From Candidatus Eiseniibacteriota bacterium (lineage in GTDB: Bacteria > Eisenbacteria > RBG-16-71-46 > JABDJR01): a stretch of DNA of 64,000 nucleotides. Position 1 is the stretch's first letter. Each line of letters begins with the position of its first letter. The notes beneath the pieces were generated by a model. The model saw only the letters and a program-made list of their open reading frames with translations. It was not told the DNA's origin and did no database searches. A program made the position numbers and the translations under genes. The stretch lies in contig CAVXKA010000002.1 of assembly GCA_963762255.1 (NCBI GenBank), forward strand, positions 643,371 through 707,370, given 5' to 3'. This document shows, one piece after another, positions 11,877 to 51,017 of this stretch.

Positions 11877-12455
11877 TCAGTTCGCGGGCACGTAATCCGT
11901 CAGATCGTAGGAGACGCCGGAATGCTCCAGAATCCTGATCGCGCCGACTTCGGGAGCTACAACGTAGGTCATGTCTAGAACGGCGTCGTCTGATATGTCA
12001 AAGAAAAACGTGTAGCAGTCGGTGTATGTGCCCGCAGGAACGGTCACCACATCCGTCTTGCTGATGAGGGTGACGGTGGGAGCCGGCACATCCGTACCTA
12101 CTGCGTATTCCCAGGACTCTCCGGCGTCCGCAGTGAAGTCAAAGAGTACTGACTCAAGCGCGCTTGTCTCGGATTTCCGAACGAGTAGACGGCCGCTGTC
12201 CATGCGGACCAGTGAGTGCGGGAACAAGGTTCCGCTGATTTGCGTGTATTCCTTTCCGTCCAGCGTCACCCGTGCAGCAACTGAATCCGATCGCCCCGCG
12301 GTGTACTCCCACAGCGTTCCAATGCCCAACGGATACATAACATCCAACGAATTAGGTTGGGTCACTTTCTTGTTACAGCCCACAAACATGAAACATGTGA
12401 GGAGAATAATGAGAAGCGGTCTCCCGCCACTTCCTAATGGCCTCGATGCGATCAT
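11877..12455 (-). CDS. Hypothetical lipoprotein
   Basis: Signal peptide with lipobox (LLTCFMFVGC). No recognisable domain. Ends 1 nt before the aquaporin ORF. Confidence 0.5.
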   Translation of the reverse strand: MIASRPLGSGGRPLLIILLTCFMFVGCNKKVTQPNSLDVMYPLGIGTLWEYTAGRSDSVAARVTLDGKEYTQISGTLFPHSLVRMDSGRLLVRKSETSALESVLFDFTADAGESWEYAVGTDVPAPTVTLISKTDVVTVPAGTYTDCYTFFFDISDDAVLDMTYVVAPEVGAIRILEHSGVSYDLTDYVPAN

Positions 12456-12799
12456 CTGGCTCTCCTTTGGGTATGCGTGTATTGAGTCCGTGGCGTCCCC
12501 GAGCTTTGTCGCTCCGATATCCATTCTAAGTCCGCGGGTCAGCATATTCCAGAGTAGGGCGCAGACGGGGTCGGGACGGACGACTCGGGGGATTAAGGCC
12601 GCCGATCAGATGCCGAGATCAACCCCGTCGTCGCGGACTCGTTGGACCACGTCGAAGATCTCCCTGACGAGAATCGGGGCGAGGCACTGTCCCCCGCGCC
12701 CCGTCACGTTGTTGTAGATTATGGGCTCGTTGTGACGGAGCCGACGGCCTCCGGGGTTCTTGTCCGACTCGCCCCGAGCCACTCAGATGGAGGAAGACG

Positions 12800-15700
12800 A
12801 TGCCGGGATTCACCCCAGGACGACGTTTCCAGCCGGCCTACCTAAGCTTCATACGCCGGCCGGCTGCTGAGCGCCTGCTCGCGCTCTTGGAACGTCAGAC
12901 CAAGGGCACGCTGTTCGGCTGCCGCATGTGCGGCAACTGCCTGCTGCAAGAGACCGCTTTCATCTGCCCGATGGAGTGTCCCAAGGGGCTGCGCAACGGA
13001 CCTTGCGGCGGCTCCACTCCGGAGGGTTGCTATGTGGATCCCGGGCGCCCCTGCATCTGGCACCACATCTTCGAGCGCGCCGACCGGATGGGGCGCACCG
13101 ACCGCCTGATGGAGGTCCTGCCGCCGCTCGACTGGGCGCGGGTGGGCCGGGAGACGTGGGGCGAGGTCATCGACGAGGTTCGCCGCCGTGGATTCGGCAA
13201 GGCCTTGGCCAGCTTCCTCGCGGGCCGCGAGCAGCGAGCCGCCTTCTGGGATCCCCTATTTCTCGGTATCCGCCAGCCCGACTGGTGGCAGGGGGACGAC
13301 GCACCGCACCCTGCGCTGGCACACGCGCCGGTGTCGCGACTCGAGGAGAAACTGGCGGCCGGCCGCTTAGTCGTCACCTCGGAGGTGGCCCCCCCACTCT
13401 CGGTGGCGCCCGAGGAGCTGACCGGCACCCTGCGCCTCCTGCGTGACTGGATCGACGCGGCCAACTTCACCGACAACCCGTCGGCAACCCCCAGAATGTC
13501 TTCGCTGGCTTGCTCGGTGCTGGCCCTGGCCCAGGGTGTGGAACCGGTGATGCAGGTGGCTGCGCGTGATCGCACCCGTATGGGACTGCAGGCTGAGATT
13601 CTGGGCGCTGCGGCGTTGGGCATCCGCAACGTTCTCTGCCTGACCGGGGATCATCCCGTCCTGGGTCCCTCGCCGCAAGGACGCATGGACATCTGGGACA
13701 TCGACTCCATCCAGATGCTCTGGATTCTGCGCCGCATGCGCGATGCGCGGCAGTACATGGACGGCCGGGCGATCAAGAATCCGCCCGCGCTGTTCCTCGG
13801 CGCCGCGGCCTCGCCATTTTCATCCACGCCGCGGACACAGGCCCTGCGGGAACTCAAGAAGGTTCACGCCGGCGCTCAGTTCTTCCAGAGCAACCTCATC
13901 TACGATGTCGAGGGTTTCGAGAGCTACGCGGAAGCGCTGGACAAGGCGGGTGTGCTCGGAAAGACGCCGTTCCTGGCCGGGATCACGCCAGTGCGCAGCG
14001 CGCGCGCGGCGCACGCCATGTCGAAGGTGCCCGGCGTGAAGATCCCACCGGCCCTCATCGAGCGCCTCGAGAAATCGCGCAACCCCCAGGAGGAGGGGGT
14101 GCAGATCGCCCTCGAGATCATCGACCGGGTCAAGCGCCTGCCGGGGATCAGCGGTTTCCACATCATGGCCGTGGGCTGGGAACTGATCGTGCCGCGGCTC
14201 GTCCGCGAATCGGGATTGAAGGAGCCGCCGGCGCCGACGGGCGACCCCGGCATCTCGATCCGCACACCCACCCGGGCGCCGCGTGCGTCGCGGCCCGCCG
14301 AGCGCCCGCCGGCGGAGCACACCGACCGCCGCTACCTGGACGCGTTGACCTCAAAGGTCCTGGTCTTCGACGGCGCCATGGGCACCGCCATCCAGATGTG
14401 CAACCTGACGGCTGCCGACTTCGGCGGCGAAAAGACGGCCGGCTGCAACGACTACCTGGTCCTCCAGAAGCCCGACGTCATCGAGGGGATCCACGCCTCC
14501 TACCTGGAGGCCGGCTGCGACGTGATCGAGACCTGCACCTTCCGCGCGAACCGGCAAACCATGGCGGAGTACGGGCTCGAGAACCGCATTCCGGAGATGA
14601 ACCGCGCGGCGGCGGTGCTGGCGCGCCGAGCGGCCGACTCCTTCTCTACCGCGGAGCGACCCCGCTTTGTGGCCGGCTCCATCGGCCCCACCGGCATGCT
14701 CCCCTCTTCCTCGGATCCCGAGCTGTCAGCCATCGCGTTCGAGGAGCTGGCCGACATCTTCTCCGAGCAGGCCGAGGCCCTGGTGGAAGGGGGCTGCGAT
14801 CTCCTCCTCATCGAAACCTCCCAGGACATGTTGGAGGTCAAGGCCGCCATCATGGGTGTGCAGGACGCTTTCGCCCGGACCGGCAAGAGAATCCCGCTTC
14901 AGGTCCAGGTCACCTTGGACGCCACGGGCCGGATGCTCCTCGGCACCGATGCGGCCGCTGTGCTTGCCACGCTGGAGCGAATGCCGGTGGACGTGCTGGG
15001 CATCAACTGCTCCACCGGGCCCGAGCACATGCGCGCACCGCTGGCCTATCTGGGCGAGAACTCCTCGAAGCCCGTCTCCTGCCTGCCCAACGCGGGTCTG
15101 CCTGAGAACGTCGATGGAGAGGCGGTCTATCCGCTCCAGCCGGACGGCTTCGCCGAGGAGATGGCGGACTATGTGGAGCGCTTTGGACTGAACGCGGTGG
15201 GCGGCTGCTGCGGCACAACCCCGGAACACATCCGCATGCTCGTCGAGCGACTGCACGGCCGAGAGCCCCGGCCTCGGACGGCCCGCCCGCTCTCACTCGT
15301 GTCATCAGGAATCACCGTGGCCGACCTGGTCCAGAACCCGCGTCCGATGCTCATCGGCGAGCGGTTGAACGCCCAGGGGAGCAAGAAGATGAAGGAGCTG
15401 CTGCTGGCCGAGGACTACGGCGGCATCGCAGCCGTGGCCCGGGAGCAGATCGACGGCGGCGCGCACACGCTGGACATCTGTGTGGCGATGACCGAGCGGC
15501 GGGACGAGAGCTACCTCATGTCCCGGGTGGTCCGGACGCTGAGCCAGACGGTGGAGGCGCCGCTGGTCATCGACACCACCGAAGCCGAAGTGCTAGAAGC
15601 CGCGCTGCAAGCGGCCCCCGGTCGCATCATCGTCAACGCGGTGAACATGGAGAACGGCCGCCATCGTGTGGACACCATGCTGCCGCTGATCCGCGACTAC

Positions 15701-17827
15701 GGCGCCGCCACCATCGCGCTGACCATCGACGAGATCGGGATGGCCCGCACTGCCGAGCGCAAGCTGGAGGTGGCCCGGAAGATCCACGACATCGCCACGA
15801 AGGAGTACGGGATTCTGCCCGATGCGCTCATCTTCGACGCCCTGACATTCACGCTGGCCACCGGCGACCCTGAGAGCGCCAACACGGCCGTGGAGACGCT
15901 GGAGGGAATCCGGCGGATCAAGGCCGCACTTCCCGGCGTGATGACATCCCTCGGGGTGTCGAACGTCTCCTATGGATTCAAGCCGGCGGCGCGCCGGGTG
16001 CTGAACAGCGTCTTCCTCTACCACGCGGTGGAGGCCGGGCTGGACATGGCCATCGTGAATCCCAAGCAGGTGACGCCGTACGCCGAGATCCCGGCCGCAG
16101 AGCGCGAGCTCGCCGAGGACCTTCTTCTCAACCGGCGGCCGGATGCCACGGCCCGGTTCATCAGTTTCTACGAGGGGGCCAAGGCCAGGCAGGTGGAAAC
16201 GGTCGATCCCACCGCCGGGCTGCCGCCGGCGGAGCGGTTGCACGCGCGCATCCTGCACCGCAAGCCGGAAGGGCTCGAAGCCGACGTGGACGCCCTTGTC
16301 GTGGCCGGCGTGCGCGAGAAGACCGGGGTGACCGATTTCACGGCGGAGCCCGGCTATCACTTTCCCAATGCCGACACCTCGGCGGTGGCGGTGCAGGTTC
16401 TGAACCAGGTGATGCTGCCGGCTATGAAGGAGGTCGGCGACAAGTTCGGCTCCGGCGAGTTGATCCTCCCCTTCGTGCTCCAGTCGGCCGAAGTGATGAA
16501 GAAGGCGGTGGGACAGCTCGAGAAGTATCTGGAGAGGGCCGAGGGGGTCAGCAAGGGGAAGGTCGTCCTGGCCACGGTCTACGGTGACGTCCACGACATC
16601 GGCAAGAACCTGATCAAGACGATTCTGGCCAACAATGGCTACAGCGTGTACGACCTGGGCAAGCAAGTGCCGGTGAACGTGATCGTAGACCAGGCGGTGG
16701 AGCTCAAGGCCGACGCCATCGGGCTGTCGGCGCTGCTCGTGTCCACCTCGCGGCAGATGCCGCTCGTGGTCCGCGAGCTGGACCGGCGCGGATTGTCCAT
16801 GCCGGTGCTGGTGGGAGGTGCGGCCATCAACCGCCGCTTCGGCCGGGAGATCGCGCACGTGGAGGAGGATCGCCCCTACGCCGGCGGCGTGCTCTACTGC
16901 CGCGATGCGTTCGAGGGGCTGGAGACGATCGATCGGCTGGCCGATCCAGCCGCGCGCAAAGAGCTGCTGGCAGGCGAGCGTCGAGCGGCACAGGAGCAGC
17001 GGAAGCCGGCGGCGGCTGGGGGGGCCTCCGCGCAGGAAGACTCCGCCCGGTCGTTGGTGACGCCTCGACCCGAGGACGTCCCCACGCCGCCGTTCTGGGG
17101 GTCCCGCACGGTGGCCGAGCTGCCGATCGAGGAGGTCTTCTCCCGTCTCGACGAGAACAGGCTCTTCAAGATGTCCTGGGGGGCAAAGAGCAAGCTCGAT
17201 GCGGAGTCGGAAGGACTGCGCGGGGAATTCGGCGCGCGCTTGGTGCGGATGAAACGCGCGGCGATCGAGGAACGGTGGTTTGCGCCTCAAGCGGTCTACG
17301 GCTACTTCCCTGCCCAAGCTGACGGCAACGACCTGCTCATCCTCGACCCCGCCGACCATCACCAGGTGCTGGCCCGCTTCTCGTTCCCGCGGCAGAAGGG
17401 ACCGGAACGTTTCTGCCTGGCGGACTACTTCCTGCCGGTCGGCTCGGCGAGGGCTGACGTTGCGGCGCTGCAGGTGGTGACCGTCGGCTCCGCGGCCACT
17501 GCGCGGTTCGACGCAATGGATGGCAAGGACGAGTACAGCGAGGCCTATTACTTCCACGGGCTGGCCGTGCAGACCGCTCAGGCGGCCACGGACCTGCTAT
17601 TCGAACGGATCCGGAAGGAGCTGGGCCTGCCGGATGGGCGCGGACGATCGTACGCGTGGGGCTTCGGTGCGTTGCCCGACGTGGAAGAGCATCGCAAGGT
17701 ATTCCGCCTGCTCCCCGCGGAGCGGGACCTGGGGATGACCCTGACCTCGGCGGGGCAGATGGTGCCCGAGCAGTCCACGGCGATGCTGGTCGTGCATCAC
17801 CCGGAGGCGCGGTACTTCAACGTGTAG
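12800..17827 (+). CDS. metH: Fusion protein: MetV-like Cys-rich MTHFR C-terminal-type domain + methylenetetrahydrofolate reductase (MetF) + complete cobalamin-dependent methionine synthase (MetH: Hcy-binding, pterin-binding, B12-cap, B12-binding DxHxxG, AdoMet-activation domains)
   Basis: Single uninterrupted 1675-aa ORF with a strong RBS (GGAGGAAGACG-ATG). N-terminus has CxxCxxC / CPMECPKG / PCGG cysteine clusters, then an MTHFR-like body (LVVTSEVAPP...CLTGD). A Pro-rich linker follows. The MetH body starts with the Hcy-methyltransferase motif VLVFDGAMGTAIQ, the B12-binding motif DVHDIGKN is present, and the C-terminus is the reactivation domain. Confidence 0.85.
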   Translation: MPGFTPGRRFQPAYLSFIRRPAAERLLALLERQTKGTLFGCRMCGNCLLQETAFICPMECPKGLRNGPCGGSTPEGCYVDPGRPCIWHHIFERADRMGRTDRLMEVLPPLDWARVGRETWGEVIDEVRRRGFGKALASFLAGREQRAAFWDPLFLGIRQPDWWQGDDAPHPALAHAPVSRLEEKLAAGRLVVTSEVAPPLSVAPEELTGTLRLLRDWIDAANFTDNPSATPRMSSLACSVLALAQGVEPVMQVAARDRTRMGLQAEILGAAALGIRNVLCLTGDHPVLGPSPQGRMDIWDIDSIQMLWILRRMRDARQYMDGRAIKNPPALFLGAAASPFSSTPRTQALRELKKVHAGAQFFQSNLIYDVEGFESYAEALDKAGVLGKTPFLAGITPVRSARAAHAMSKVPGVKIPPALIERLEKSRNPQEEGVQIALEIIDRVKRLPGISGFHIMAVGWELIVPRLVRESGLKEPPAPTGDPGISIRTPTRAPRASRPAERPPAEHTDRRYLDALTSKVLVFDGAMGTAIQMCNLTAADFGGEKTAGCNDYLVLQKPDVIEGIHASYLEAGCDVIETCTFRANRQTMAEYGLENRIPEMNRAAAVLARRAADSFSTAERPRFVAGSIGPTGMLPSSSDPELSAIAFEELADIFSEQAEALVEGGCDLLLIETSQDMLEVKAAIMGVQDAFARTGKRIPLQVQVTLDATGRMLLGTDAAAVLATLERMPVDVLGINCSTGPEHMRAPLAYLGENSSKPVSCLPNAGLPENVDGEAVYPLQPDGFAEEMADYVERFGLNAVGGCCGTTPEHIRMLVERLHGREPRPRTARPLSLVSSGITVADLVQNPRPMLIGERLNAQGSKKMKELLLAEDYGGIAAVAREQIDGGAHTLDICVAMTERRDESYLMSRVVRTLSQTVEAPLVIDTTEAEVLEAALQAAPGRIIVNAVNMENGRHRVDTMLPLIRDYGAATIALTIDEIGMARTAERKLEVARKIHDIATKEYGILPDALIFDALTFTLATGDPESANTAVETLEGIRRIKAALPGVMTSLGVSNVSYGFKPAARRVLNSVFLYHAVEAGLDMAIVNPKQVTPYAEIPAAERELAEDLLLNRRPDATARFISFYEGAKARQVETVDPTAGLPPAERLHARILHRKPEGLEADVDALVVAGVREKTGVTDFTAEPGYHFPNADTSAVAVQVLNQVMLPAMKEVGDKFGSGELILPFVLQSAEVMKKAVGQLEKYLERAEGVSKGKVVLATVYGDVHDIGKNLIKTILANNGYSVYDLGKQVPVNVIVDQAVELKADAIGLSALLVSTSRQMPLVVRELDRRGLSMPVLVGGAAINRRFGREIAHVEEDRPYAGGVLYCRDAFEGLETIDRLADPAARKELLAGERRAAQEQRKPAAAGGASAQEDSARSLVTPRPEDVPTPPFWGSRTVAELPIEEVFSRLDENRLFKMSWGAKSKLDAESEGLRGEFGARLVRMKRAAIEERWFAPQAVYGYFPAQADGNDLLILDPADHHQVLARFSFPRQKGPERFCLADYFLPVGSARADVAALQVVTVGSAATARFDAMDGKDEYSEAYYFHGLAVQTAQAATDLLFERIRKELGLPDGRGRSYAWGFGALPDVEEHRKVFRLLPAERDLGMTLTSAGQMVPEQSTAMLVVHHPEARYFNV

Positions 17828-18158
17828 GTTTGCCACCCCGGTAGAATCGAATCTGCACCCGCTCCATAGTGGCGAGCCCTTCGTTGACGGCCTCATCCAC
17901 TAGCGGCAGGAATGCTTCGATCTTCTCGAGCGTGTCCACGATCTCCACGATGATCGGAAGATCCACCGAGAGTCTCAGGATCTTGGCTGTGTGAAGGCGG
18001 CTGTGGGCCCCGAAGCCCTCGGTGCCGCGCAGCACCGTCGCGCCGGCGAGACCGTGCTCGCGAGCCTTGAGCACCAGCCACTGATAGAGCGGTTTCCCAT
18101 CGTGCTTGTCGGACTCTCCGATGAAGATGCGCAGCAGGTGCCCCTCTTCAGGAAGCAT
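17817..18158 (-). CDS. DUF190 / COG1993 PII-like protein (commonly paired with CrcB fluoride channels)
   Basis: 113 aa with MLPEEGHLLRIFIGESDKHDGKPLY, typical of DUF190. Immediately downstream of crcB on the same strand. Confidence 0.75.
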   Translation of the reverse strand: MLPEEGHLLRIFIGESDKHDGKPLYQWLVLKAREHGLAGATVLRGTEGFGAHSRLHTAKILRLSVDLPIIVEIVDTLEKIEAFLPLVDEAVNEGLATMERVQIRFYRGGKPTR

Positions 18159-18162
18159 CGTC

Positions 18163-18549
18163 TCACCTCCCCGGCAGGAGTTGCGTCAACGCGGCCCCCG
18201 CCCACACGGCGCCGATCCCAAGAACCACCTGGAGTACGACCGAACTGGCGAGCGCCAGCATCTGACCGTCTCGAATCAGTTGGAAGGATTCATACCCGAA
18301 CGTGGAGAACGTGCTGAACCCTCCCAGGAAACCGATGAACAAGAATACCCGGGTTCCCCCACCGATGACACCCCGCGCCTCGGACAGGGTCGCCAGGAAC
18401 CCGATCGCAAGACACGCTGCGACGTTGATGACGAGCGTCTCGTATGGGAAACTGGCGCCCTGTTTCACTCGGTTGATGAGCCCACCGACGCCGAATCGCA
18501 GCATCGCGCCGAGGAACCCGCCGAGTCCGGCCAAGAGATAGAGTTCCAT
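18163..18549 (-). CDS. crcB: Fluoride ion channel CrcB/Fluc
   Basis: About 128 aa with four TM helices and the GFxGGxTTFSTF-like signature (GFLGGFSTFSTF). Start chosen at MELYLLAGLGG with a GGAGGG RBS. The ORF is listed longer (to 18639). Confidence 0.85.
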   Translation of the reverse strand: MELYLLAGLGGFLGAMLRFGVGGLINRVKQGASFPYETLVINVAACLAIGFLATLSEARGVIGGGTRVFLFIGFLGGFSTFSTFGYESFQLIRDGQMLALASSVVLQVVLGIGAVWAGAALTQLLPGR

Positions 18550-18899
18550 CCAGATCACCCTCCGAAACCGGCGTCGCCCGGCCGTTGCAGTCTCGGGTTG
18601 CGGGTCCGGTGCTTCGTCCGAGTCAACGATCATCTTCACGATACGGACCCCGTTCCTTGAATAACTAGCGGGTTCAGCAGGGTCGACTTGCCGCGCTTGG
18701 ATTGGCCGACGAGGGCAACATGGAAGAGCCCCGCAGTGAGGCGGTCGGCCAACGATCGGGCATCCTCTGCGAGGCGCAGGATCCGCAGTCTAGCATCCGG
18801 GGGGAGGCCGGACAACGCATGGAAAAGGGTACCTTGACCTCGCGGCCGACTTGGTCAGTAATAGGGTGATCTATCAGCCGCGTATCGACGGGAGACCGC

Positions 18900-27768: not shown

Positions 27769-27857
27769 TGGTGCCGGGGGCCGGAATCGAACCGGCACGG
27801 ACGTTGCCGCCCTGCGGATTTTAAGTCCGCTGCGTCTCCCAGTTTCGCCACCCCGGC
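27769..27857 (-). tRNA. tRNA-Leu (anticodon TAA), type II with long variable arm, CCA encoded
   Basis: Reverse complement reads GCCGGGGTGGCGAAACTGGGAGACGCAGCGGACTTAAAATCCGCAGGGCGGCAACGTCCGTGCCGGTTCGATTCCGGCCCCCGGCACCA. It has a 7-bp acceptor stem (GCCGGGG/CCCCGGC), anticodon loop CUUAAAA, T-arm GGTTCGATTCC, and a long variable arm. Confidence 0.9.
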
Positions 27858-31879: not shown

Positions 31880-33022
31880 CACGGCCTTTCCAGTGCGCCC
31901 AGGCGCCGGGCCAGATCCATGGCCTCGCGTGCCGCGCGCGACATCTCGCGCCGGCGTATCTCCTCCACCACCGCGCTTGCCCGGCTCGTCTTGGTCTGGT
32001 TGAGCCGGGCGGCCGGTGCACCTCCCTCCTCGATGAGGATGGCTCCCTCGGCAGGGAGGCGCCTCCAGCATACAGAAACCGAAGGCTCCGCGAAGTCCAT
32101 CGTGACGGCAAGGAGCGTGGACCCCCCTGCCGGGACGGACGCCGCGACAATGCGGACGGCGATCGGGCCGGCCAGACCGACGAACGAAGCGCCTGTTTCG
32201 GCGGCGCGCGCCCTGTCGAGGACGCGCCAGCCAAGACGCGAGGCAAGCCAACCGAGGAAGAGCCATGCCTTGAGCCGGCCTCCCGAGCCCTCGGCGACTG
32301 TCACGCTCACCGCGCGGATTGCGTCCAGATTCTGCGCGCGCACCCCGTCGAAGCGGGAAGCCACCGCGCGCCGCCAATCGCCGAGTTCCGTCCAGAGAAG
32401 ATCCCGGCAGGGCGGCGTCACGGTGTCCGGCGCCAGGCAGCGATCCCACAGCGCGAGCCCCTCGGCGATCCCGAGGTGGGACGCGTTGCCCAATAGAAGG
32501 TCGAGGTCGGACGAGAGCTCGCGCACCCATCCCAGTGCCAGCGGCGACGTGCGTTCCGAGAGCGCGACCAACGGCACCCCGCCCACCGCGAGCGCACGCA
32601 CTCCAGCCGCGATCACGCGATCCGCTCCGGTCGGCGCTTCCAGGTGAACGCTTTCGCAGCACACGAGCGACGCGCCGCTGGCGTAGCGCGAGCAGGTCGC
32701 GCTCACCCACGCCTGCGACCGTGTGTGCGCTGCGTCTGTCTCGACAAGCGATCACCCGCGAGGGATGTAGGCGCGCGATGTCGTCGACGAGATCCTGCAT
32801 CCCGTCGTCTCCTGCGGCGGGTGCGACCAGCGTTGCCCGGCAGGCGCGCGCCACCGAGCGCCCCGTCTCACCCTCGCCGACCGCCGCTTCCGACTCCCAG
32901 AGCGCGGCGAGATCGCGCTCCACCGCGGCCGCGTCGAATCCGACCGGCGCGCTGCGGCCTAGCTGGACGACGTCTTCGTGTCCGGCCCGTGGCGCCGACG
33001 GCGCAGCGTCCGGCGCGTTCAT
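31879..33022 (-). CDS. opcA: Glucose-6-phosphate dehydrogenase assembly protein OpcA, apparently frameshifted near 32640-32710
   Basis: Position between zwf and pgl with ATGA overlaps at both ends. The N-terminal part (MNAPDAAPS...) is in the pgl frame, while the C-terminal 275 aa (31879..32706) is in another frame. It is assigned as OpcA by synteny (zwf-opcA-pgl is the standard arrangement); the OpcA family was not verified at motif level. Confidence 0.5.
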
Positions 33023-34530
33023 CAGAGCCGCAACCACCGGCGGCCATCCGCTTCGAGCAGACGGTCCGCCTCGGCGGGACCCCACGTCCCCGCCTCGTAG
33101 AACGCGGGTTCCGGAGCGTTGCGTTCAGCGCCCCACGCTTCCGCGATCGGATCGACGAGGGACCACGCGAGCTCGACTTCGTCGCGGCGCGCGAACAGCG
33201 TCGAGTCGCCGGTGATCGCGTCCAGAAGAAGGCGCTCGTACGCCTCGGGGGGTTCCTTGCCGAACGAAGTGGAGTAGTTGAAGTCCATCCGCACTTCGTC
33301 GATGCGCATCGCTTGCGCCGGAGCCTTCGACTCGAAGGAGAGCGAGATCCCCTCGTCGGGCTGGATGCGCAGGCGCAGCACGTTGGACCTCGGCCGCTCG
33401 GCGCCGCTCCCACGAAAGAGTTCGTAGGGCGGCTTCTTGAAGACGATGCCGATCTCTGTGGCGCGCTTGGGGAGCCGCTTGCCGGAACGCAGGTAGAACG
33501 GCGTTCCCGCCCACCGCCAGTTCGCCGCTTCGAGCTTGAGCGCGAGGTAGGTGTCCGTCCGCGAGCCGGTCGCCACGCCCGGTTCCTCGCGATAGCCGGG
33601 CACGCTCTCGCCGCCGGCGAGCCCCGCTCCGTACTGCCCGCGCACCACGCGGCGCGCGATCTCGTCCGGCGCGAAGGGCACGATGGAACGGAGCACCTTG
33701 GCCTTCTCGTCGCGCACCGACTTGGCGTCGAAGCGGACCGGCGGCTCCATGCAGACGAGCATCATGAGCTGGAGCAGGTGGTTCTGCAGCATGTCGCGCA
33801 GCACGCCCGCCTCCTCGTAGTAGCCCGCGCGCCCCTCCAATCCCACCGACTCGGCCACCGCGATCTGAACGTGATCGACGTAGCGACTGTTCCATAGCGG
33901 TTCGAAGATGCCGTTGTCGAGGCGGAACACCAGGATGTTCTGCACCGTCTCCTTGCCCAGGTAATGATCAATACGAAACACCTGATCCTCATCGAACACG
34001 CCGAGCAACGTGTCGTTGAGGGCGCGCGCAGAAGCGAGATCCCGCCCAAACGGCTTCTCGACGACGATGCGCGACGCGCCCGCCTGGCCGGGGGCCCGCA
34101 CGAGCCCGGCCCGGCCCAGATTCTGGATGATCGTGGGATACGCGCTGGGCGGAGTGGCGAGATAGAAGAGATGCACGCCGGGATGGCCGCGCTCGGCGTC
34201 GATCGCGCGCAGCCGCTCTCCCAGCTTGCGGTAGGTCGCCTCGTCCTGGAACTCGCCGCAGACGTAGCTCAGGTCCCCGCAGAGCTGCGTCCACACTGCG
34301 TTGTCCACCGGACGACGGCGCGAGAAGCGGTCCACTCCCTCTCGCATTTCGGTGTGGAACTTCTCATCGGTCCAGTCACGCCGCGCCACGCCCACCACGC
34401 TGGTGTCTGGATGGAGAAGGCCCTCCCAAGCCAGGTTGTAAATCGCGGGGAGGAGCTTGCGGTGGGTGAGATCGCCGGTGGCGCCGAACATGACGAGCGT
34501 GCACGGGACCGGCTCGCGCTGCGACTCCAT
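33022..34530 (-). CDS. zwf: Glucose-6-phosphate dehydrogenase
   Basis: 502 aa with the NAD(P) site VMFGATGDLTHRKLLPAIY and the catalytic motif RIDHYLGKE. The upstream 111-codon Arg/Ala-rich extension of the ORF was rejected. Confidence 0.9.
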   Translation of the reverse strand: MESQREPVPCTLVMFGATGDLTHRKLLPAIYNLAWEGLLHPDTSVVGVARRDWTDEKFHTEMREGVDRFSRRRPVDNAVWTQLCGDLSYVCGEFQDEATYRKLGERLRAIDAERGHPGVHLFYLATPPSAYPTIIQNLGRAGLVRAPGQAGASRIVVEKPFGRDLASARALNDTLLGVFDEDQVFRIDHYLGKETVQNILVFRLDNGIFEPLWNSRYVDHVQIAVAESVGLEGRAGYYEEAGVLRDMLQNHLLQLMMLVCMEPPVRFDAKSVRDEKAKVLRSIVPFAPDEIARRVVRGQYGAGLAGGESVPGYREEPGVATGSRTDTYLALKLEAANWRWAGTPFYLRSGKRLPKRATEIGIVFKKPPYELFRGSGAERPRSNVLRLRIQPDEGISLSFESKAPAQAMRIDEVRMDFNYSTSFGKEPPEAYERLLLDAITGDSTLFARRDEVELAWSLVDPIAEAWGAERNAPEPAFYEAGTWGPAEADRLLEADGRRWLRL

Positions 34531-34607
34531 CCCCACGCGAAGCGGGTTCGCACTCGCTGCGGCGGACGGCGGAGCGGCGGGATCCCCGGCGCCTCGGTCG
34601 GCCCCGC

Positions 34608-35516
34608 TCAAGACGACGCCTTCTTCACCGCGTGCCCTCCGAACTGCTGCCGGAGCGCGGCCAGCACCTTGGCCTGAAAGGAGTCTTCCTGCCGCGAGCG
34701 GAACCGCGTCATGAGCGCCGCGTAGAGCACCGGCGCGGGAACGTCGTGGTCGACGGACTCCTGAAGCGTCCAGCGTCCCTCGCCGGAGTCGGACACGTAG
34801 CCGCTGAGCGATGCCAGCGACGGATCCTCGGCGAAGGCCCGCCCCGCCAGCTCCAGAAGCCACGATCGCACCACGCTCCCCTGCATCCAGACCGAGCAGA
34901 GCTGCTCGAGGTCGAACCCGTAGTCGGAGGCGTTGAGGATCTCGAAGCCTTCCGCGTAGGCCTGCATGAGGCCGTACTCGATCCCGTTGTGGACCATCTT
35001 CGCGTAGTGCCCCGCCCCCGACGGACCCACGCGGGCCCAGCCCTGATCGCGCGCGGGAGCCAGGGTCTCGAAGATCGGTCGCACGCGATCCACGACCGAC
35101 GTCTCGCCGCCGATCATGAGCGAGTAGCCGTTATCGAGCCCCCACACGCCGCCGCTCACACCTGCGTCGATGAAGTGAAGGCTGCGCTCCCGCAGCGCCT
35201 GCCCGCGGCGCACCGAGTCCTTGAAGTAGCTGTTGCCGCCGTCGATGACGACGTCGCCGGGAGCGAGCACATCGGCCAGGCTCCAGATCGTCGTCTCTGT
35301 CGGGTCCCCCGCCGGAACCATGACCCACGCGGTGCGCGGCGGCCGCAGCTTCCCCGCGGCCTCGGCGAGCGTCGACGCACCTTCCGCTCCCTCCGCGACC
35401 ATGGCCGCCACGGCCTCGCGATCGAGGTCGAAGACCACCACGCGATGCCCGCCGCGCAGGAGCCGCCGCGTCATGTTGGCGCCCATCTTGCCGAGTCCGA
35501 TCATCACGATATCCAT
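34608..35516 (-). CDS. gnd: 6-phosphogluconate dehydrogenase (decarboxylating), short NAD-type form
   Basis: 302 aa, Rossmann MIGLGKMGANM, 6PGDH signature around GAGHYAKMVHNGIEYG. ATG overlaps the upstream SDR stop (ATGA). Confidence 0.85.
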   Translation of the reverse strand: MDIVMIGLGKMGANMTRRLLRGGHRVVVFDLDREAVAAMVAEGAEGASTLAEAAGKLRPPRTAWVMVPAGDPTETTIWSLADVLAPGDVVIDGGNSYFKDSVRRGQALRERSLHFIDAGVSGGVWGLDNGYSLMIGGETSVVDRVRPIFETLAPARDQGWARVGPSGAGHYAKMVHNGIEYGLMQAYAEGFEILNASDYGFDLEQLCSVWMQGSVVRSWLLELAGRAFAEDPSLASLSGYVSDSGEGRWTLQESVDHDVPAPVLYAALMTRFRSRQEDSFQAKVLAALRQQFGGHAVKKASS

Positions 35517-36232
35517 CACAGATCTCCTCCGTCGGGTCGAAGCACGATCTCCTCCGGCACCGAGCGCGGGTCCGTGGACAACGCCCAGATCACCGCGTCC
35601 GCCACCGAGCCCGGCGACATGAGTCGATCCGCGGGCGGGGCCTTTGCGTGCTCCCACATCGCGGTCGCGGTCGCGCCGGGAATGACCGCGGTGACGCGCA
35701 CGCCGGTTCCGAGCGTCTCTTCCCGTAGCACGCGCGTGAACCCGAGCAACCCGAACTTCGACGCGCCGTAGGCGCCGCAGCCGCGATACGCCTTCACACC
35801 CGCCACCGAGACGTTCATCACGACGTGCCCCTCGCGCGCGGCCAGCATCTCCGGGAGCACCTCGCGGGTGAAGAAGAACGGTCCACGCAGGTTGGTCTCC
35901 ATAGCGCGATTCCAGACTTCCGTGGTGAGCTTCGCCACCGAAGCGTATTCCGCCACCCCCGCGTTGTTGATGAGGATGGACACGCGGCCGAAGCGCTCGC
36001 GCGCCGCATCCACCGCCCGGCGCACATTGTCCTCGCGGCGCACATCGCACACGATCGGCTCGAACGCGACCTCGTGCCCCGCGGCGTCGGCATCCCGCCC
36101 CAGCGCCTGGAGCGGCTCCTCGCGGCGGCCGACGCCGGCTACGTTCACGCCCAGCGCCAGCAACCGGAGCGCGATCTCGCGCCCTATGCCTGTCCCCGCG
36201 CCAGTCACGATCGCGGTACGGCCGGAGAGCAT
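35516..36232 (-). CDS. SDR-family oxidoreductase (candidate sepiapterin/pteridine reductase by context)
   Basis: TGAGTGIGREIA cofactor motif, NNAG, and a YGASK catalytic dyad. Sits between gnd and folE with ATGA overlaps on both sides. Confidence 0.75.
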   Translation of the reverse strand: MLSGRTAIVTGAGTGIGREIALRLLALGVNVAGVGRREEPLQALGRDADAAGHEVAFEPIVCDVRREDNVRRAVDAARERFGRVSILINNAGVAEYASVAKLTTEVWNRAMETNLRGPFFFTREVLPEMLAAREGHVVMNVSVAGVKAYRGCGAYGASKFGLLGFTRVLREETLGTGVRVTAVIPGATATAMWEHAKAPPADRLMSPGSVADAVIWALSTDPRSVPEEIVLRPDGGDL

Positions 36233-36816
36233 CAGATCTCCGTCCTGTGCTTGAGCAAGTCCAGGAATTCGTTGCGTGTCCCGCGGTCCTCGCGGAACAC
36301 GCCCAGCATGGCGCTGGTGATCGCCACCGAGTGCTGCTTCTGCACGCCGCGCATGGTCATGCACATGTGCGTCGCCTCGATCACCACCCCCACCCCCTGC
36401 GGCTGCAAGAGCTTTTGGATGGTCTGGGCGATCTGGTTGGTCAAGCGCTCCTGCACCTGGAGTCGCCGCGCGCACACATCCACCAGGCGCGGGATCTTTG
36501 AGAACCCGACGATCTTGCCGTTGGGGATGTAGGCCACATGGGCCTTTCCCACGAACGGGAGGAGATGGTGCTCGCACATCGAATAGAGTTCGATGTCCCG
36601 GATGCAGATCATCTCGTCGGTGTCCTCGCTGAACAGGGCCTTGTTGAGCACGTCTTCCGGATCCTGCTTGTAGCCCTGCAAGAGGAAGCGATAGGCCTGG
36701 GCCACGCGGTGGGGTGTGCGCAGGAGCCCTTCGCGCTCGGGATCCTCGCCCAGCTCGACCAGCATCTCGCGCACCAGCGCTTCCAGTCGCGCGTTGTCCA
36801 ATGGTTTCATCATCAA
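36232..36816 (-). CDS. folE: GTP cyclohydrolase I
   Basis: 194 aa with the conserved FolE core ([10 protein letters not shown], zinc-binding CEHH) and C-terminal ...MCMTMRGV... Confidence 0.9.
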
Positions 36817-37244
36817 CCTCTTTCGGGTCCGTAGAAATCCACGACGTTTCGATCGGTCTCATAGAGTCGGATGCGATACAGGATCCCCGCGGGAAGCGCC
36901 GGCTCCAGCACCTCCCAGGCCGCCACGGCGATGTTCTCCGCGGTCGGGATGCGACCCCGCATGAAGTCCACGTCGCGGTTGAAATCGCGGTGGTCGCAAC
37001 GCTCCCAGAACTCGCGCACGATGACCGCCTTGAGATGCTTGAGATCGACAACCATGCCGGTCTCAGGATCGGGCTTCCCGCGCACCGTCACCTCGAGCAC
37101 GTAGTTGTGGCCGTGCCCGCCCTCGGTGGCGCACTTGCCGAAGACGGCGGCGTTCCGCGCATCGTCCCAGGCCGGATTGTGGAGCCGGTGCGCCGCGCAG
37201 AAGGCGATGCGCTTGGTGAGGTAGAGAGAACCGTCCCGCATCAT
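36813..37244 (-). CDS. 6-pyruvoyl-tetrahydropterin synthase / QueD-family 6-carboxytetrahydropterin synthase
   Basis: 143 aa with the CxxxH...HGHNY zinc-site pattern (FCAAHRL...[11 protein letters not shown]) of the PTPS/QueD fold. Whether it is PTPS or QueD is not resolvable by eye. Confidence 0.8.
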
Positions 37245-46391: not shown

Positions 46392-46955
46392 TTGAAGATC
46401 GCGTTCATCGGCACGCATGGGGTGGGAAAGACGACCCTGTGTTTCGATCTCGCCGCCAATCTCAAGCGCCTCGACTTCACCGTGGACCTCGTGAAAGAGG
46501 TGGCGCGGGATTGTCCCCTGCCCATCAACCGCGACACCACCTACGACGCGCAATCGTGGATCTTTCACACCCAGATCGCGCGCGAGCTGGCCTCGGCGGG
46601 ACGCCACGAGGTCGTCATCTGCGACCGCTCGGTGCTCGACAACTACGCGTATCTGGTCAACAAGATCGGGCGGCGCAAGGAAATGGACCCCCTCATCACC
46701 CACTGGCTCACCACGTACGGCGCGCTGGTCAAGGTGCCGATCTGGAAGGCCCCGAGTTTCGACGGCGTACGCGACGTGGGGCTCGAGTTCCAGCGCGAGA
46801 TCGACCGCACGCTGGAAGCCCTCATCGCCGATTTCGGCGTCTCCGTGCTGCGGCTGGAGCCGAGCGAGATGGAGATGTGGACCCAGCGTGTGCTCGACTA
46901 CCTCGACCTCCCCACGCGGGCCGAACAAGTGCAGCTCTTCCCGGAGGATGCATGA
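46392..46955 (+). CDS. P-loop NTPase (AAA_28 / NadR-kinase-like ATP-binding protein)
   Basis: Walker A motif [15 protein letters not shown] start with RBS GGTGAGGGACCA-TTG. 187 aa. Confidence 0.6.
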
Positions 46956-48100
46956 CCCGTCACGATTCCAAGCACCATTACCTTGCCGGGCCCCGCATCC
47001 AACCGCAAGCCATCCGCGGCGGCATGACGGTGGACACGCTCATCGACGAGACGTTCCTGGCCTACAACGCGGGGCGCATCCAGACCGCGGCGCGGCTCCT
47101 GGTCGAGAAGGGACTGCACGCGGACACGACGATGGGGCTCTCGCTGGCCGGAGCCATGAGCCCGGCGGGGGTGACGCTTTCGACCATCATCCCGCTCGTG
47201 CAGGCGGGGTTCATCGACTGGATCGTCTCCACGGGGGCGAATCTCTACCACGATGCGCATTTCGGGCTGGGGCTGGCGCTTCACCGAGGCAGCCACACCC
47301 TCGACGACCGTCAGCTCTTCGAGGCGGGGGTGATTCGCATCTACGACGTCCTCTTCGACTACGAGGTCCTGCTCAAGACCGACGCCTTCATCCGCGAGGT
47401 GATGAAGAACCCCGAGTTCAAACGCACGATGGGCACCGCGGAGTTCCACCACTTGCTCGGCAAGCACCTCGCCGCGCGTGAGGAAGCGCTGGGGCTCAAG
47501 GACACGTGCCTCCTGACCGTCGCCTACCGCTGCGGCGTGCCGTGCTACGTCTCGTCGCCCGGGGATTCCTCGATCGGCATGAACGTGGCCGAGATGGCGA
47601 TCCGCGGCGAGGGCCCGGTGATCGACGTGAGTCGCGACGTCAACGAGACGGCGGCCATCGTCTACGATGCCAAGAAGCACGGGAAGAGCGCGGTGCTGCT
47701 CCTGGGCGGCGGCTCACCCAAGAACTTCGTACTGCAGACCGAGCCGCAGATCCAGGAAGTGCTGGGATTGCCGGAGAAGGGGCACGACTACTTCATTCAG
47801 GTGACGGACGCGCGGCCCGACACAGGCGGGCTTTCGGGGGCGACGCCCTCCGAGGCGGTCTCGTGGGGCAAGATCGATCCGTCCCAACTCCCCGACACGG
47901 TCGTCATCTACTCCGACACCACGATCGCGGCGCCGCTCCTGGCCGCCTACATGCTGAGTCGGCACGAGCCGCGCCCCTTGAAGCGGCTCTACGACCGCCG
48001 CGATGCGATCTACGGGCGATTGCGCGAGGACTTCCTGTCAGCTCGGCGCGAGCCGGAGGACATTCGCGGCACACGCGACGAGGTGCGCCCGGGCGGTTAG
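46952..48100 (+). CDS. Deoxyhypusine synthase family protein (DHS-like; candidate homospermidine-synthase-type NAD-dependent aminobutyl transferase)
   Basis: 382 aa starting [18 protein letters not shown], with a DHS-like NAD-binding core (...STGANLYHD...GGGSPKNF...). ATGA overlap with the ATPase stop. Confidence 0.65.
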
Positions 48101-48133: not shown

Positions 48134-50791
48134 CTACTTCGCCTCGAAACGACCCTGGAAGAAACGCAGCTTGTCCGGCTCGTACACGAACGTGAGTCCC
48201 TTGAGACTCTCCCGCCGGGCGTAGACCCGCTGAATCCCCTCGGCGATCCCCCGCATGTGGTCGTTGGTGTAGACCCGGCGAGGAATCGTGAGGCGAACCA
48301 ATTCCAGGGCGGGGCGGTAGTTTTGGCCCGTCTGCGGGTTCCGGCCCTTGGAGACGTTGCCGCGCTCCATGGCCCGCACCCCGGTCTCGACGTAGATCTC
48401 GGCCGCAAGTCGCTGAGCCGGGTACTCGTCCTGATCGATATGGGGCAGAAATCTCTTGGCATCGATGAAAATCGCATGCGTTCCCGCGGGGACGACGATC
48501 GGAACCCCGGCCTCTTGCAGGAGCTGCCCCAGATAGTGGGTTTGCTGCACGCGGGACCGGATGTACCGATCGTCCAGCATCTCCTCGATTCCGCGGTTGA
48601 TGGCTGCGAGGTCCGCGGTGGCCAGCCCCCCGTCGGTGACGTTCCCCTCATAGATCCGCAGCAACTCCAACGCCTTGTCCGCCCATGCCTGATTGTCCCG
48701 GAAGGCGAGGAGGCCGCCGATGTTGATGAGGAAGTCCTTCTTCCCGCTCACCGTGCAGCCGTCTCCGTAGAGCATCATCTCCCGCACGATGTCTCGGATC
48801 TTCACCCCGCGGTAGCGAGGATCCCGATTCTGGATCATGTACGCATTCTCGACGAACCGGGTGGCATCGAAGAAGATCGGGATGCCGAGCGCGCTGCAGT
48901 ACTCGTACACCTCCTTCATGTTGTCCATGCTGACCGGCTGGCCGCCGGCCATGTTCACCGAGTGCTCGAAGGAGATATAGGAGACCTTCTCCGCCCCGTG
49001 CTCGTCGACCACTGCGCGGAGCTTCTGCAGATCGATGTTCCCCTTCCAGGGGAATTCGCTCTGGGTGTCATGGGCCTCGTCCACGATGATGTCGACGAAG
49101 ACGCCCCCCGCCAGTTCCTGATGAAGCTTGGTCGTGGTGAAGTACATGTTTCCCGGCACCCATTGCCGATCCTTGATCATGACCTGGCTCAGGATGTGTT
49201 CGGCCGCCCGCCCCTGGTGGGTGGGAATGATGAACTGGTACCCGAGAACATCCTGAAGCGTCGCGGTCAGGCGGTGGTACTCGTCGCTGGACGTGGCGCT
49301 CGCTCGCGCGCCGTCGTAGGCCGCCCACTGATCGGTGCTCATGGCCGTGGTCCCGGAGTCGGTCAGGAGATCGATGGAGACGTCTCCGGAGCGAAGCAGG
49401 AACGTGTTGTACCCCGCCTCTCGAATCGCCCGCTCGCGCTGGTCCCGGGCGAGAACTCCGACCCTCTCCATGGTGTGGATCTGGTAGGGCAGGGTATCGA
49501 ATTCGAAGGACCGGAGGTTCGGGAAGACCCAGTGGTAGTGCATCTGGTCCCGCCAGGCTCCACCCGCGATCTCCTGAAGACCCGCCACCTGGTCGCACTG
49601 CCCCTGCAAGGCAACGATCGCATCGGCCACCTGATCGAGCTGCGCGTTGGTCATGGCCAACCGAGGAATCTGAACCGGCACCAGCCGGTCCTTGCCGACC
49701 AGACCGGTGGCCACCGCGCGAACTCCGGAGAGCAGATAGAGCGCGGCCGAGAACGTGTCCTGCTGGTGCTCGGTGATGTGCGGCAGGAATTCATCGGCCC
49801 GGATGTAGGCCCCGTCGCACCCCCGCTCCAGAGGGACGCCCGCATCCCGGAGCCTCTGTGTGAAGCGTTCCGTCTGGTGCATGACCCAGTGAACTTCACC
49901 CTCGTCGCACATCTCCTGGATCCCGCGGGCGAGAACTTCCATGGTCCGGCCGGCCATCCCCCCGTAGGTGTGCAGGCCCTCGTAGACCACGACCTCGTTC
50001 ATGAACTTCTCGTGCACGTCGGGGTCGTCGGTCGTGAGAATGCCCCCGGTGTTGCACTTGGGATCCTGGGCTCCGTCCATCTGGAAGACATCGGTGGTCT
50101 TTACGATCTGCTTCACGATCTCGGCGACAGGCCTGTCGGCCTGGCCCGGCTCGTGGTGCTGGATGTACCAAGCGTTCTCGATCACCCGGGAACCGTCGCA
50201 GATGACGAGCTTCCCGTGCTTGGCCGCGGCTGCCTTCACCGCCCGCAGGTTGGCGAGGCTGAAGGGGTGCCGCCCGTCGGCGAACGCCTGAAGCCCGACG
50301 AAGGCCACGTTCCCCTGCTTGAGAACTCCCTCCAGTCGTCCCAGGTCGACGTTCCCGGTGAACACCGGCTCCTCGGTGTCCCGCACGTCCGGGTACTGAA
50401 CGTTCAGCGGTCTGAACACGTCCAGCCGCGAGCGCGCGTTGCTTGGCACGGCGGACCCGGCCGGCACCAGGGTCGACACCACCAGCTTCACGCAGCCCAG
50501 CACGTTGTGAGTGGGACAGACGTACCCGTGCCCGAGAACGTCCTTCACCGCCCTCTCGAGCGATTCGAAATTGCGGGAGCCCGCGTAAGCCTCGTCGCCG
50601 ATCAACTGACCGGAGAGCTGCTCCTGACTGAACGCGCTGGTTCCCAGCGAGCACATGTCGAAGTTGACCTGGGTCGGGGTCAGATGCCAGACGTTGAATC
50701 GGGCCCGGGAGAGATACTTCTTGCGCTCTTCCAGCGTGGGGAAGGAGAGAAGCCGGACCGTCTTGATCTTGTGGGGCTCGTGCGTGACCAT
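48134..50791 (-). CDS. Tandem fusion of two beta-eliminating lyase (tryptophanase / tyrosine phenol-lyase) domains. The C-terminal copy is canonical with the PLP lysine (SGKKD). The N-terminal copy is divergent and lacks the KK motif.
   Basis: Single 885-aa ORF from MVTHEPHKIK (RBS AAAGGAACGAGC-ATG). The C-terminal half shows tryptophanase hallmarks (NTFLLRSGDVSIDLLTDSGT, VSGKKDFLINIGG, ...RFFQGRFE). The N-terminal half aligns to the same fold (MNEVVVYEGLHTYGGMAGRT vs LELLRIYEGNVTDGGLATAD) but has DGAQDPKCNTGG in place of SGKKD. Confidence 0.75.
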   Translation of the reverse strand: MVTHEPHKIKTVRLLSFPTLEERKKYLSRARFNVWHLTPTQVNFDMCSLGTSAFSQEQLSGQLIGDEAYAGSRNFESLERAVKDVLGHGYVCPTHNVLGCVKLVVSTLVPAGSAVPSNARSRLDVFRPLNVQYPDVRDTEEPVFTGNVDLGRLEGVLKQGNVAFVGLQAFADGRHPFSLANLRAVKAAAAKHGKLVICDGSRVIENAWYIQHHEPGQADRPVAEIVKQIVKTTDVFQMDGAQDPKCNTGGILTTDDPDVHEKFMNEVVVYEGLHTYGGMAGRTMEVLARGIQEMCDEGEVHWVMHQTERFTQRLRDAGVPLERGCDGAYIRADEFLPHITEHQQDTFSAALYLLSGVRAVATGLVGKDRLVPVQIPRLAMTNAQLDQVADAIVALQGQCDQVAGLQEIAGGAWRDQMHYHWVFPNLRSFEFDTLPYQIHTMERVGVLARDQRERAIREAGYNTFLLRSGDVSIDLLTDSGTTAMSTDQWAAYDGARASATSSDEYHRLTATLQDVLGYQFIIPTHQGRAAEHILSQVMIKDRQWVPGNMYFTTTKLHQELAGGVFVDIIVDEAHDTQSEFPWKGNIDLQKLRAVVDEHGAEKVSYISFEHSVNMAGGQPVSMDNMKEVYEYCSALGIPIFFDATRFVENAYMIQNRDPRYRGVKIRDIVREMMLYGDGCTVSGKKDFLINIGGLLAFRDNQAWADKALELLRIYEGNVTDGGLATADLAAINRGIEEMLDDRYIRSRVQQTHYLGQLLQEAGVPIVVPAGTHAIFIDAKRFLPHIDQDEYPAQRLAAEIYVETGVRAMERGNVSKGRNPQTGQNYRPALELVRLTIPRRVYTNDHMRGIAEGIQRVYARRESLKGLTFVYEPDKLRFFQGRFEAK

Positions 50792-50958
50792 GCTCGTTCC
50801 TTTGGAGAGATCCGATTCCGAGCGCGACCCGTCGATTAGAGCGGAAGGGGGCTCCGCCGGGCAAGAGGGTAAGAGATCATTCCCAAAATGTATCGCCGCG
50901 GACTTCCGGTATTTCGGGTTACTTGCCCAACCGGCGAGCCCGGACGCGATCGACATCG

Positions 50959-50991
50959 CGAGGGGGGGTCGGATTCCCCGATCCCCCCTCG
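50959..50991 (-). terminator. GC-rich hairpin (9-bp stem CGAGGGGGG/CCCCCCTCG, 14-nt loop) between the T9SS protein gene and the tandem lyase gene. Candidate terminator or attenuator, with no U-tract.
   Basis: A perfect inverted repeat is read directly from the sequence. It is located 27-59 nt downstream of the stop of the 51018..52475 gene and about 170 nt upstream of the lyase start. Confidence 0.3.
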
Positions 50992-51017
50992 AACGGACAG
51001 TTCCCCGATAGGCTCGA

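Follow-up and report, generated by a model that had tools for sequence, protein, structure and literature searches.

Could the last two steps that lead to the methyl group of methionine be placed on a single protein? This question is raised by one open reading frame (ORF) in the 64,000-nucleotide stretch of contig CAVXKA010000002.1 analyzed here (the window). An earlier reading of the sequence alone had described this ORF as a triple fusion of a MetV-like protein, a MetF-type methylenetetrahydrofolate reductase (MTHFR) and a complete B12-dependent methionine synthase (MetH), and had considered the architecture unusual. The ORF is most probably a genuine, selectively maintained gene fusion whose product, an enzyme with four predicted cofactors, would serve the methyl branch of methionine synthesis. 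The direct basis for this assignment is the ORF and its conservation, the identities of its domains, the catalytic and ligand residues that have been kept, the MTHFR fold and the Wood–Ljungdahl-type ancestry of the reductase.

Composition and conservation of the fused chain

The 1675-amino acid (aa) ORF contains no internal stop codons, and its third-position guanine-plus-cytosine (GC) content of 0.87 is typical for real genes of the window. The strong ribosome-binding site mentioned in the sequence-only reading is found as a Shine–Dalgarno-like element in front of the ATG (Table 1). Use of this ATG is supported because the N-terminus that follows it, MPG(F/L)TPGRRFQPAY, is common to relatives. 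The translation was searched with Pfam models scored against their gathering cutoffs, the check that had been suggested for the fusion, and seven domains were detected in order, all above cutoff and with PF12225 as the N-terminal one.

The cysteine cluster that had pointed to MetV is present in the first module. Across 27 sequences from Acidobacteriota and Chloroflexota, eight cysteines never vary (C41, C44, C47, C56, C60, C69, C77 and C85), and the same eight are invariant in a 70-sequence alignment (A3); a RQPxWWxGD..H motif at aa 158–170 of the module is almost fully conserved. A 2017 paper on Chloroflexi lists PF12225 in its key for the domains of the Moorella hdrABC–mvhD–metVF operon (PMC5736913), and we take it to be the domain of the MetV gene. 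In homoacetogens, metV and metF follow each other in sequence (PMC5736913). Residues 1–180 of the fusion correspond to a whole MetV, with a domain order colinear with that gene order. MetVF of Clostridium ljungdahlii contains FMN and two [4Fe-4S] clusters per MetV and accepts reduced ferredoxin, while NAD(P)H is not used (PMC8760232). By analogy, the eight conserved cysteines of the fusion would fit two [4Fe-4S] clusters as measured in the C. ljungdahlii enzyme.

The second segment, which had been called MTHFR-like, was aligned with MetF of Escherichia coli K-12. E195 and D284 correspond to Glu28 and Asp120 of the E. coli enzyme, and both columns are invariant. The position of Gln183 is occupied by a conserved Asn (N365), and that of Phe223 by M407, which is not conserved. 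AlphaFold run from the single sequence of aa 1–512 returned a pLDDT of 39, and an alignment-based AlphaFold2 model of aa 1–480 was used instead (pLDDT 81.8, pTM 0.86). With these scores, MetV and MetF are predicted to pack as one compact body. The best Foldseek matches in the PDB were MTHFR barrels, among them those of Thermus (8eac) and E. coli (1b5t), with target-normalized TM-scores of 0.74–0.86 over only ~300 aligned columns. Taken together, sequence and predicted fold identify aa 181–468 as an MTHFR barrel. For the MetV part, no solved structure was detected by phmmer, by a profile built from the 27 sequences at E ≤ 1 or among the best 50 Foldseek matches.

The Pro/Arg-rich linker is present as had been described, and behind it a full MetH was indeed found. 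Its modules for homocysteine, pterin, cap, B12 and activation stand in the canonical order, each above its Pfam cutoff, and the NCBIfam metH equivalog TIGR02082 aligns over its full length, with aa 517–1675 covering profile positions 2–1182 of 1182 (1048.4 bits versus a cutoff of 1010.85). The E. coli-type MetH model NF007024 reached 783 bits, under its cutoff of 1497. The nearest PDB entries are the full-length methionine synthase chains 8ssc and 8g3h (818 bits). C737, C803, C804, D1263-x-H1265-x-x-G1268, S1310-x-L1312 and G1339-G1340 are invariant in 15 family members, and a motif scan extended to 41 members agrees in the cobalamin-binding motifs. On established knowledge of E. coli MetH, we take the three cysteines to be the zinc ligands and DxHxxG/SxL/GG to be the cobalamin motif. 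When compared with 12 of its closest stand-alone relatives, the MetH half starts at the native MetH N-terminus (stand-alone proteins begin 5–10 aa before RYLDAL), has no fusion-specific insertions that could serve as docking adaptations, lacks only short segments and carries only five fixed substitutions. The two halves are therefore simply joined end to end by a tether, and MetH has not been remodeled. All defining features of MetH and of a MetVF-type MTHFR that can be read from a sequence are present in the chain.

The same seven-domain architecture was recovered in proteins P0001–P0040 from a search of 5.8 billion proteins. These are drawn from JGI, ENA, NCBI and Logan assemblies, are 1649–1830 aa long and share 71–93% identity with the window protein at ~100% coverage. 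A genome scan with one genome per GTDB species, combined with ORF analysis of the loci, gives counts of carriers that are lower bounds; at least six GTDB species representatives have the fusion. MetH lies in the same open frame in all ten Acidobacteriota-type loci listed (L001–L010), whereas all 74 Chloroflexota loci listed end after ~477–530 aa, and two longer open frames among them are extended upstream only. The search for the fusion in related genomes, which had been proposed as a check, thus returned about 40 clusters and ten loci, with the junction in frame in every intact one.

How rare the architecture is was gauged by an exhaustive HMMER search with aa 1–510 against 1.84 billion 50%-identity representatives, which gave 5678 matches. 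Among the best 150 of these, only one protein (P0028, 1681 aa) is long enough for the triple fusion, in agreement with the earlier view that it is unusual. The other full-length proteins among the best 150 are mainly two-domain MetV–MetF (~450–500 aa) or plain MetF, together with a few MTHFR–CdhD fusions (845–1038 aa); several further matches are contig-truncated fragments. The triple fusion is therefore one tight family. Its members are labeled 'Vicinamibacterales bacterium' (P0011 and P0037) or 'Acidobacteria bacterium' and 'uncultured Acidobacteriota bacterium' (L005, L007 and L009); one (L006) is labeled 'Candidatus Eisenbacteria', a label that is probably wrong. The window protein is 73–78% identical to the labeled members and 93% identical to an unlabeled JGI metagenome protein, which would make its host a Vicinamibacterales-like acidobacterium. 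The fusion is conserved in one Acidobacteriota group that is known only from metagenomes and whose named members are Vicinamibacterales.

The junction deserves particular scrutiny, as the fusion would be spurious if a sequencing or assembly error in the linker, such as an indel or an overlooked stop codon, had made one frame out of adjacent metVF and metH genes. Split calls do exist in public data, for example P0207, a protein of 543 aa that ends inside the linker. It is one of four shorter members of 90% clusters (P0207, P0208, P0209 and P0214), which break off at four separate points, each with an Arg/Gly-rich tail. In three of the four, the tail is what the DNA of an intact cluster-mate gives when it is read in another frame directly after the in-frame body. 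Indels of 1 nt, from assembly errors or in pseudogenes, therefore account for these three, and a gene boundary made of a stop and a new start does not. The tail of P0208 is too short to classify, but its reading frame is intact through the linker. No stretch of the protein varies more among 15 aligned members than the junction (aa ~469–508), and all 15 nevertheless keep it in frame. The stretch from VPRLV to DRxYL measures 35–43 aa in the 34 members in which both anchor motifs were found, is Ala/Arg/Pro-rich and follows a semi-conserved pattern, LKELPAR..xVR(T/S)R..RPPAExT; the tether of P0039 is longer than that of other members. In nucleotide sequence, the junctions compared at seven loci differ strongly, with several indels and no frame break, and that of the window contains no long homopolymer run. 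With about 40 independent clusters and ten loci holding one frame across such DNA, a merger of two genes retains almost no probability and is effectively refuted. Neither of the two findings that would have spoken for separate genes or another N-terminal identity was made: every intact relative has the junction in frame, and the N-terminal ~180 aa match PF12225.

Ancestry of the two halves and related systems

Among stand-alone proteins, those nearest to the reductase module are two-domain MetV–MetF proteins, mostly from Anaerolineae and including that of the cultured Leptolinea tardivitalis YMTK-2. They are 59–68% identical over aa 1–475 and share the N-terminus, the invariant cysteines and the catalytic residues, but they end after ~477–530 aa and have no MetH within 7 kb. 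In Chloroflexi bacterium CFX6, metVF is the last gene of an acsD–acsC–RACo–acsE cluster. On a second contig, it follows genes for carbon monoxide dehydrogenase/acetyl-CoA synthase (CODH/ACS), two CdhD genes, RACo and acsE; these two loci (L075 and L086) are the ones in which the acs/CODH context was fully examined. A pterin-binding homologue lies directly upstream of metVF at ~20 further Chloroflexota loci. Given this acs/CODH neighborhood of stand-alone metVF, the reductase module is of the Wood–Ljungdahl type. The Chloroflexota acs clusters L075 (9381–11765) and L086 (7590–9943) also flank metVF with genes for a malic enzyme and a thioredoxin-reductase-like Pyr_redox_2 flavoprotein of ~300 aa. 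This flank hints at a route from NAD(P)H through the flavoprotein, and possibly ferredoxin, to MetV, and we regard it as only a lead.

The closest stand-alone MetH proteins are 59–65% identical to the MetH half, and all named ones are labeled Anaerolineales. In a neighbor-joining tree without support values, the fusion modules group as a single clade adjacent to the Anaerolineae enzymes, and three stand-alone MetV–MetF proteins of 72–74% identity (P0225, P0227 and P0228) fall within or next to that clade. P0227 (74% identity) is a genuine stand-alone gene on a contig of 71.6% GC, where a 63-nt spacer separates its TAG stop codon from a peptidase gene. It may be the pre-fusion state or a later fission. 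Adjacent but separate metVF and metH genes, as expected of a pre-fusion arrangement, were not found at the closest relatives: the closest stand-alone MetVF is followed by the peptidase, and the closest MetH by YitJ-type or unrelated genes. In L088 (6001–11492) and L089 (2529–10502), the closest stand-alone MetH (64–65% identical) is followed 90 nt or ~2.5 kb downstream by a YitJ-type gene that encodes an S-methyl_trans plus MTHFR protein of 606–630 aa. MetH and MTHFR have therefore been linked repeatedly, with different reductase types. The fusion likely arose within a Vicinamibacterales lineage by end-to-end joining of a two-domain metVF and a metH, both nearest to those of Anaerolineae. By these comparisons, a Wood–Ljungdahl-type reductase appears to have been recruited for methionine synthesis and fused to an unmodified MetH.

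Each part of the fusion has a known counterpart. The acetogen type II MetVF enzymes (C. ljungdahlii, C. formicoaceticum, Eubacterium callanderi and Thermoanaerobacter kivui) combine the same Cys-rich iron–sulfur MetV with a flavin-containing MetF barrel, and the order of their genes is the order of the domains here. In the fusion, MetV and MetF instead share one chain that also continues into MetH, and no Wood–Ljungdahl genes lie nearby. With MetH proteins (TIGR02082; 8ssc and 8g3h), the fusion has in common all modules, the Zn site, the DxHxxG/SxL/GG motif and the activation domain, and it differs by its additional 510-aa N-terminal MetV–MetF extension. YitJ-type enzymes (NF006396) likewise combine MTHFR with a homocysteine-methyltransferase domain, but in the opposite order (homocysteine domain before MTHFR) and without the MetV, pterin, B12 and activation modules. 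The NF006396 model matched the fusion in two separate stretches with 421.8 bits, under its cutoff of 453, so that the protein is not a YitJ-type enzyme, as the sequence-only reading had argued from the domain order and the B12 modules. MTHFR–CdhD fusions (P0046–P0054 and P0077–P0078; annotated in Dissulfurirhabdus thermomarina as 'acetyl-CoA decarbonylase/synthase complex subunit delta') also attach an MTHFR barrel, 43–48% identical to that of the fusion, to a partner from a corrinoid system. That partner is the corrinoid iron–sulfur protein subunit of the acetyl-CoA pathway and not MetH, and PF12225 is absent. These MTHFR–CdhD/AcsD proteins are 845–1057 aa long, and several carry TPR repeats.

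No description of a MetV–MetF–MetH or MTHFR–MetH fusion was found in the literature searched. Neither 'fusion' nor 'fused' occurs in a 2026 MTHFR review in which MetV is mentioned, and the single literature match to 'fused' concerned glycine methyltransferases and was discarded. The architecture, assembled from well-known components, is undescribed in that literature. As consecutive enzymes often become fused in evolution, the find is less surprising than it would otherwise be. What is unusual is the recruitment of a Wood–Ljungdahl-type iron–sulfur reductase for methionine synthesis and the prediction of four cofactors on a single chain.

Proposed mechanism and competing explanations

For the working of the enzyme, we infer its cofactor content, electron donor, direct hand-over of 5-methyl-tetrahydrofolate (5-methyl-THF) and oligomeric state. 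A low-potential one-electron donor, either ferredoxin or flavodoxin, would reduce the two predicted [4Fe-4S] clusters of the MetV module. From the clusters, electrons would move on to the flavin in the MetF barrel, where 5,10-methylene-THF would be converted to 5-methyl-THF at the conserved Glu/Asp site. MetH, on its presumably flexible tether of ~40 aa, would then transfer the methyl group to cob(I)alamin and on to zinc-activated homocysteine to give methionine and THF. Oxidized cob(II)alamin would be rescued by the C-terminal module with S-adenosylmethionine (AdoMet) and an electron. MetH is the sole consumer of 5-methyl-THF, the compound behind the 'methyl-folate trap'. Fusion guarantees that the producer of 5-methyl-THF and its only consumer are expressed 1:1, and may allow a local hand-over between them.

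Several observations weigh against a fused enzyme that works in this way. The Phe223 position of E. coli MetF is not kept and Gln183 is replaced by Asn, so that substrate and donor handling probably differ from those of the NADH-dependent enzyme. The close stand-alone P0227 has no MetH in the 6.4 kb downstream, and fusion is dispensable for function. No gene for a ferredoxin, flavodoxin or reductase adjoins the fusion gene, and its neighbors vary among relatives.

Rather than acting as the MTHFR of the cell, the MetV–MetF module could mainly be a built-in electron supply that reactivates the cob(II)alamin of MetH, in the manner of flavodoxin, methionine synthase reductase or RACo. Low-potential electrons are required both by MetVF and for MetH reactivation, two [4Fe-4S] clusters are predicted in MetV and the related acs clusters place the corrinoid activator RACo beside a homologous methyltransferase and MetVF. 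This explanation is nevertheless improbable: the Glu and Asp of folate chemistry are invariant, the module is 59–74% identical to stand-alone reductases and MetH, otherwise unmodified, has a complete activation domain of its own. That the ORF yields two working proteins, by proteolysis in the tether or by an internal start of MetH translation, is distinctly improbable as well. The tether is long and probably flexible, its semi-conserved basic xVR(T/S)RxR stretch could be a processing site and a close stand-alone MetVF exists. Against an internal start, the tether contains no in-frame ATG with an obvious ribosome-binding site and the first Met of MetH (M527) lies inside the conserved fold; moreover, the frame has been kept through many indels, which would be needless if translation restarted. 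The acetogen-type reductase and the acs clusters around its nearest stand-alone relatives could also suggest a role in the Wood–Ljungdahl pathway or in methylotrophic C1 catabolism in place of methionine biosynthesis. We consider such a role very improbable, as genes for acs, CODH and the corrinoid iron–sulfur protein were found neither in the 64-kb window nor around the relatives, and the C-terminal part passes the MetH equivalog with the homocysteine Zn site and the AdoMet-dependent reactivation domain kept. The gene content of the window itself has the look of an ordinary heterotroph, with a xanthine-dehydrogenase-family protein, a GH15 glucodextranase, G6PD, FolE with 6-pyruvoyl-tetrahydropterin synthase (PTPS) and an aldehyde dehydrogenase.

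A wider version of the fused methionine-forming enzyme can also be conceived, in which the MetV–MetF module both makes 5-methyl-THF and feeds the electron for cob(II)alamin reactivation in MetH, with one donor-docking site and true channeling of 5-methyl-THF. We regard this as unlikely; if true, the protein would be a self-contained methylene-THF-to-methionine machine.

As a 'Rosetta-stone' fusion, in which joining implies that the two parts act together, the chain indicates a use of MetVF-type reductases, so far studied almost only as Wood–Ljungdahl enzymes of strict anaerobes, in methionine biosynthesis as well, in organisms with no acetyl-CoA-pathway genes at their sequenced loci. The physiological electron donor of MetVF-type enzymes is a debated question in acetogen bioenergetics (PMC8760232), for which a soluble single-chain MetVF tied to an anabolic reaction would offer a simpler system. 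With iron–sulfur clusters, flavin, zinc and cobalamin all predicted on the one chain, it is also a natural test case for 5-methyl-THF channeling. Public records name these proteins 'methionine synthase' only, and metabolic reconstructions of these Acidobacteriota may therefore wrongly score MTHFR as missing.

Gene surroundings and other features of the window

The fusion gene is bordered on its 5′ side by a candidate ORF on the opposite strand, with low third-position GC and without a Pfam match, and on its 3′ side by a convergent DUF190 gene, also on the opposite strand, which overlaps the stop codon by 11 nt. With opposite-strand neighbors on both sides, it therefore stands alone. Together with CrcB (fluoride channel), the DUF190 gene forms a pair convergent with the fusion. 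In L001, the relative with 93% identity, the DUF190/CrcB pair and an MFS gene lie upstream of the fusion instead. The neighborhood has therefore been rearranged.

Table 1 Coordinates of the fusion gene, its modules and other features of the window
Feature	Window positions	Strand	Residues (aa)	Remarks
Region directly 5′ of the fusion	11877–12799			GC 0.55 at 12000–12499, ~0.63–0.70 around
Long ORF of this region	11877–12545	−		
Long ORF of this region	12022–12717	+		
Shine–Dalgarno-like GGAGG	12789–12793	+		6 nt 5′ of the ATG, read off the sequence
MetV–MetF–MetH fusion ORF	12800–17827	+	1–1675	ATG start; stop codon included
MetV-like module	12800–13339	+	1–180	
PF12225 (DUF5981, 'MTHFR C-terminal')			21–112	Core of the MetV-like module; 95.1 bits, cutoff 23
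MetF barrel, PF02219 (MTHFR)	13340–14203	+	181–468	100.3 bits, cutoff 24
Tether	14204–14323	+	469–508	Ala/Arg/Pro-rich; between VPRLV (MetF end) and DRRYLDAL (native MetH N-terminus)
MetH homocysteine-binding module, PF02574 (S-methyl_trans)	14360–15250	+	521–817	286 bits; presumed Zn ligands C737, C803, C804
MetH methyl-tetrahydrofolate module, PF00809 (Pterin_bind)	15356–16060	+	853–1087	142 bits
MetH cap and cobalamin-binding Rossmann module	16379–16825	+	1194–1241 and 1253–1342	
PF02607 (B12-binding_2, cap)			1194–1241	52 bits
PF02310 (B12-binding)			1253–1342	71 bits
MetH AdoMet-dependent reactivation module, PF02965 (Met_synt_B12)	17249–17824	+	1484–1675	92 bits; profile positions 47–257 of 273
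DUF190 and CrcB pair	17817–18639	−		
tRNA gene	27772–27857	−		RF00005, 58 bits
G6PD ORF	33022–34863	−	1–613	Pfam domains from aa 124
FolE and PTPS/QueD	36232–37244	−		
Deoxyhypusine-synthase-like protein	46439–48100	+	1–553	PF01916 at aa 208–504
ORF with Beta_elim_lyase	48134–51115	−	1–993	Beta_elim_lyase at aa 582–957

The region directly 5′ of the fusion dips in GC, and its only long ORFs are the two listed in Table 1, each of which lacks a Pfam match or has low third-position GC. An Rfam search of positions 12400–12900 returned no riboswitch or other RNA at E ≤ 1. At gathering thresholds, one tRNA gene was the sole RNA family match in the whole window.

Further features were observed at a distance from the fusion gene. 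FolE (GTP cyclohydrolase I) adjoins PTPS (PTPS/QueD) ~19 kb from it, a pair concerned with pterin, folate or queuosine precursors. The Pfam domains of the G6PD ORF begin far from its start, so that the protein may be extended N-terminally by ~120 aa or its start may be mis-set. The 993-aa ORF matches Beta_elim_lyase only in its C-terminal part, and its N-terminal ~580 aa have no Pfam match. The deoxyhypusine synthase family is uncommon in bacteria; the member encoded here carries an N-terminal extension of ~200 aa without a Pfam match, which may reflect a mechanically called start.

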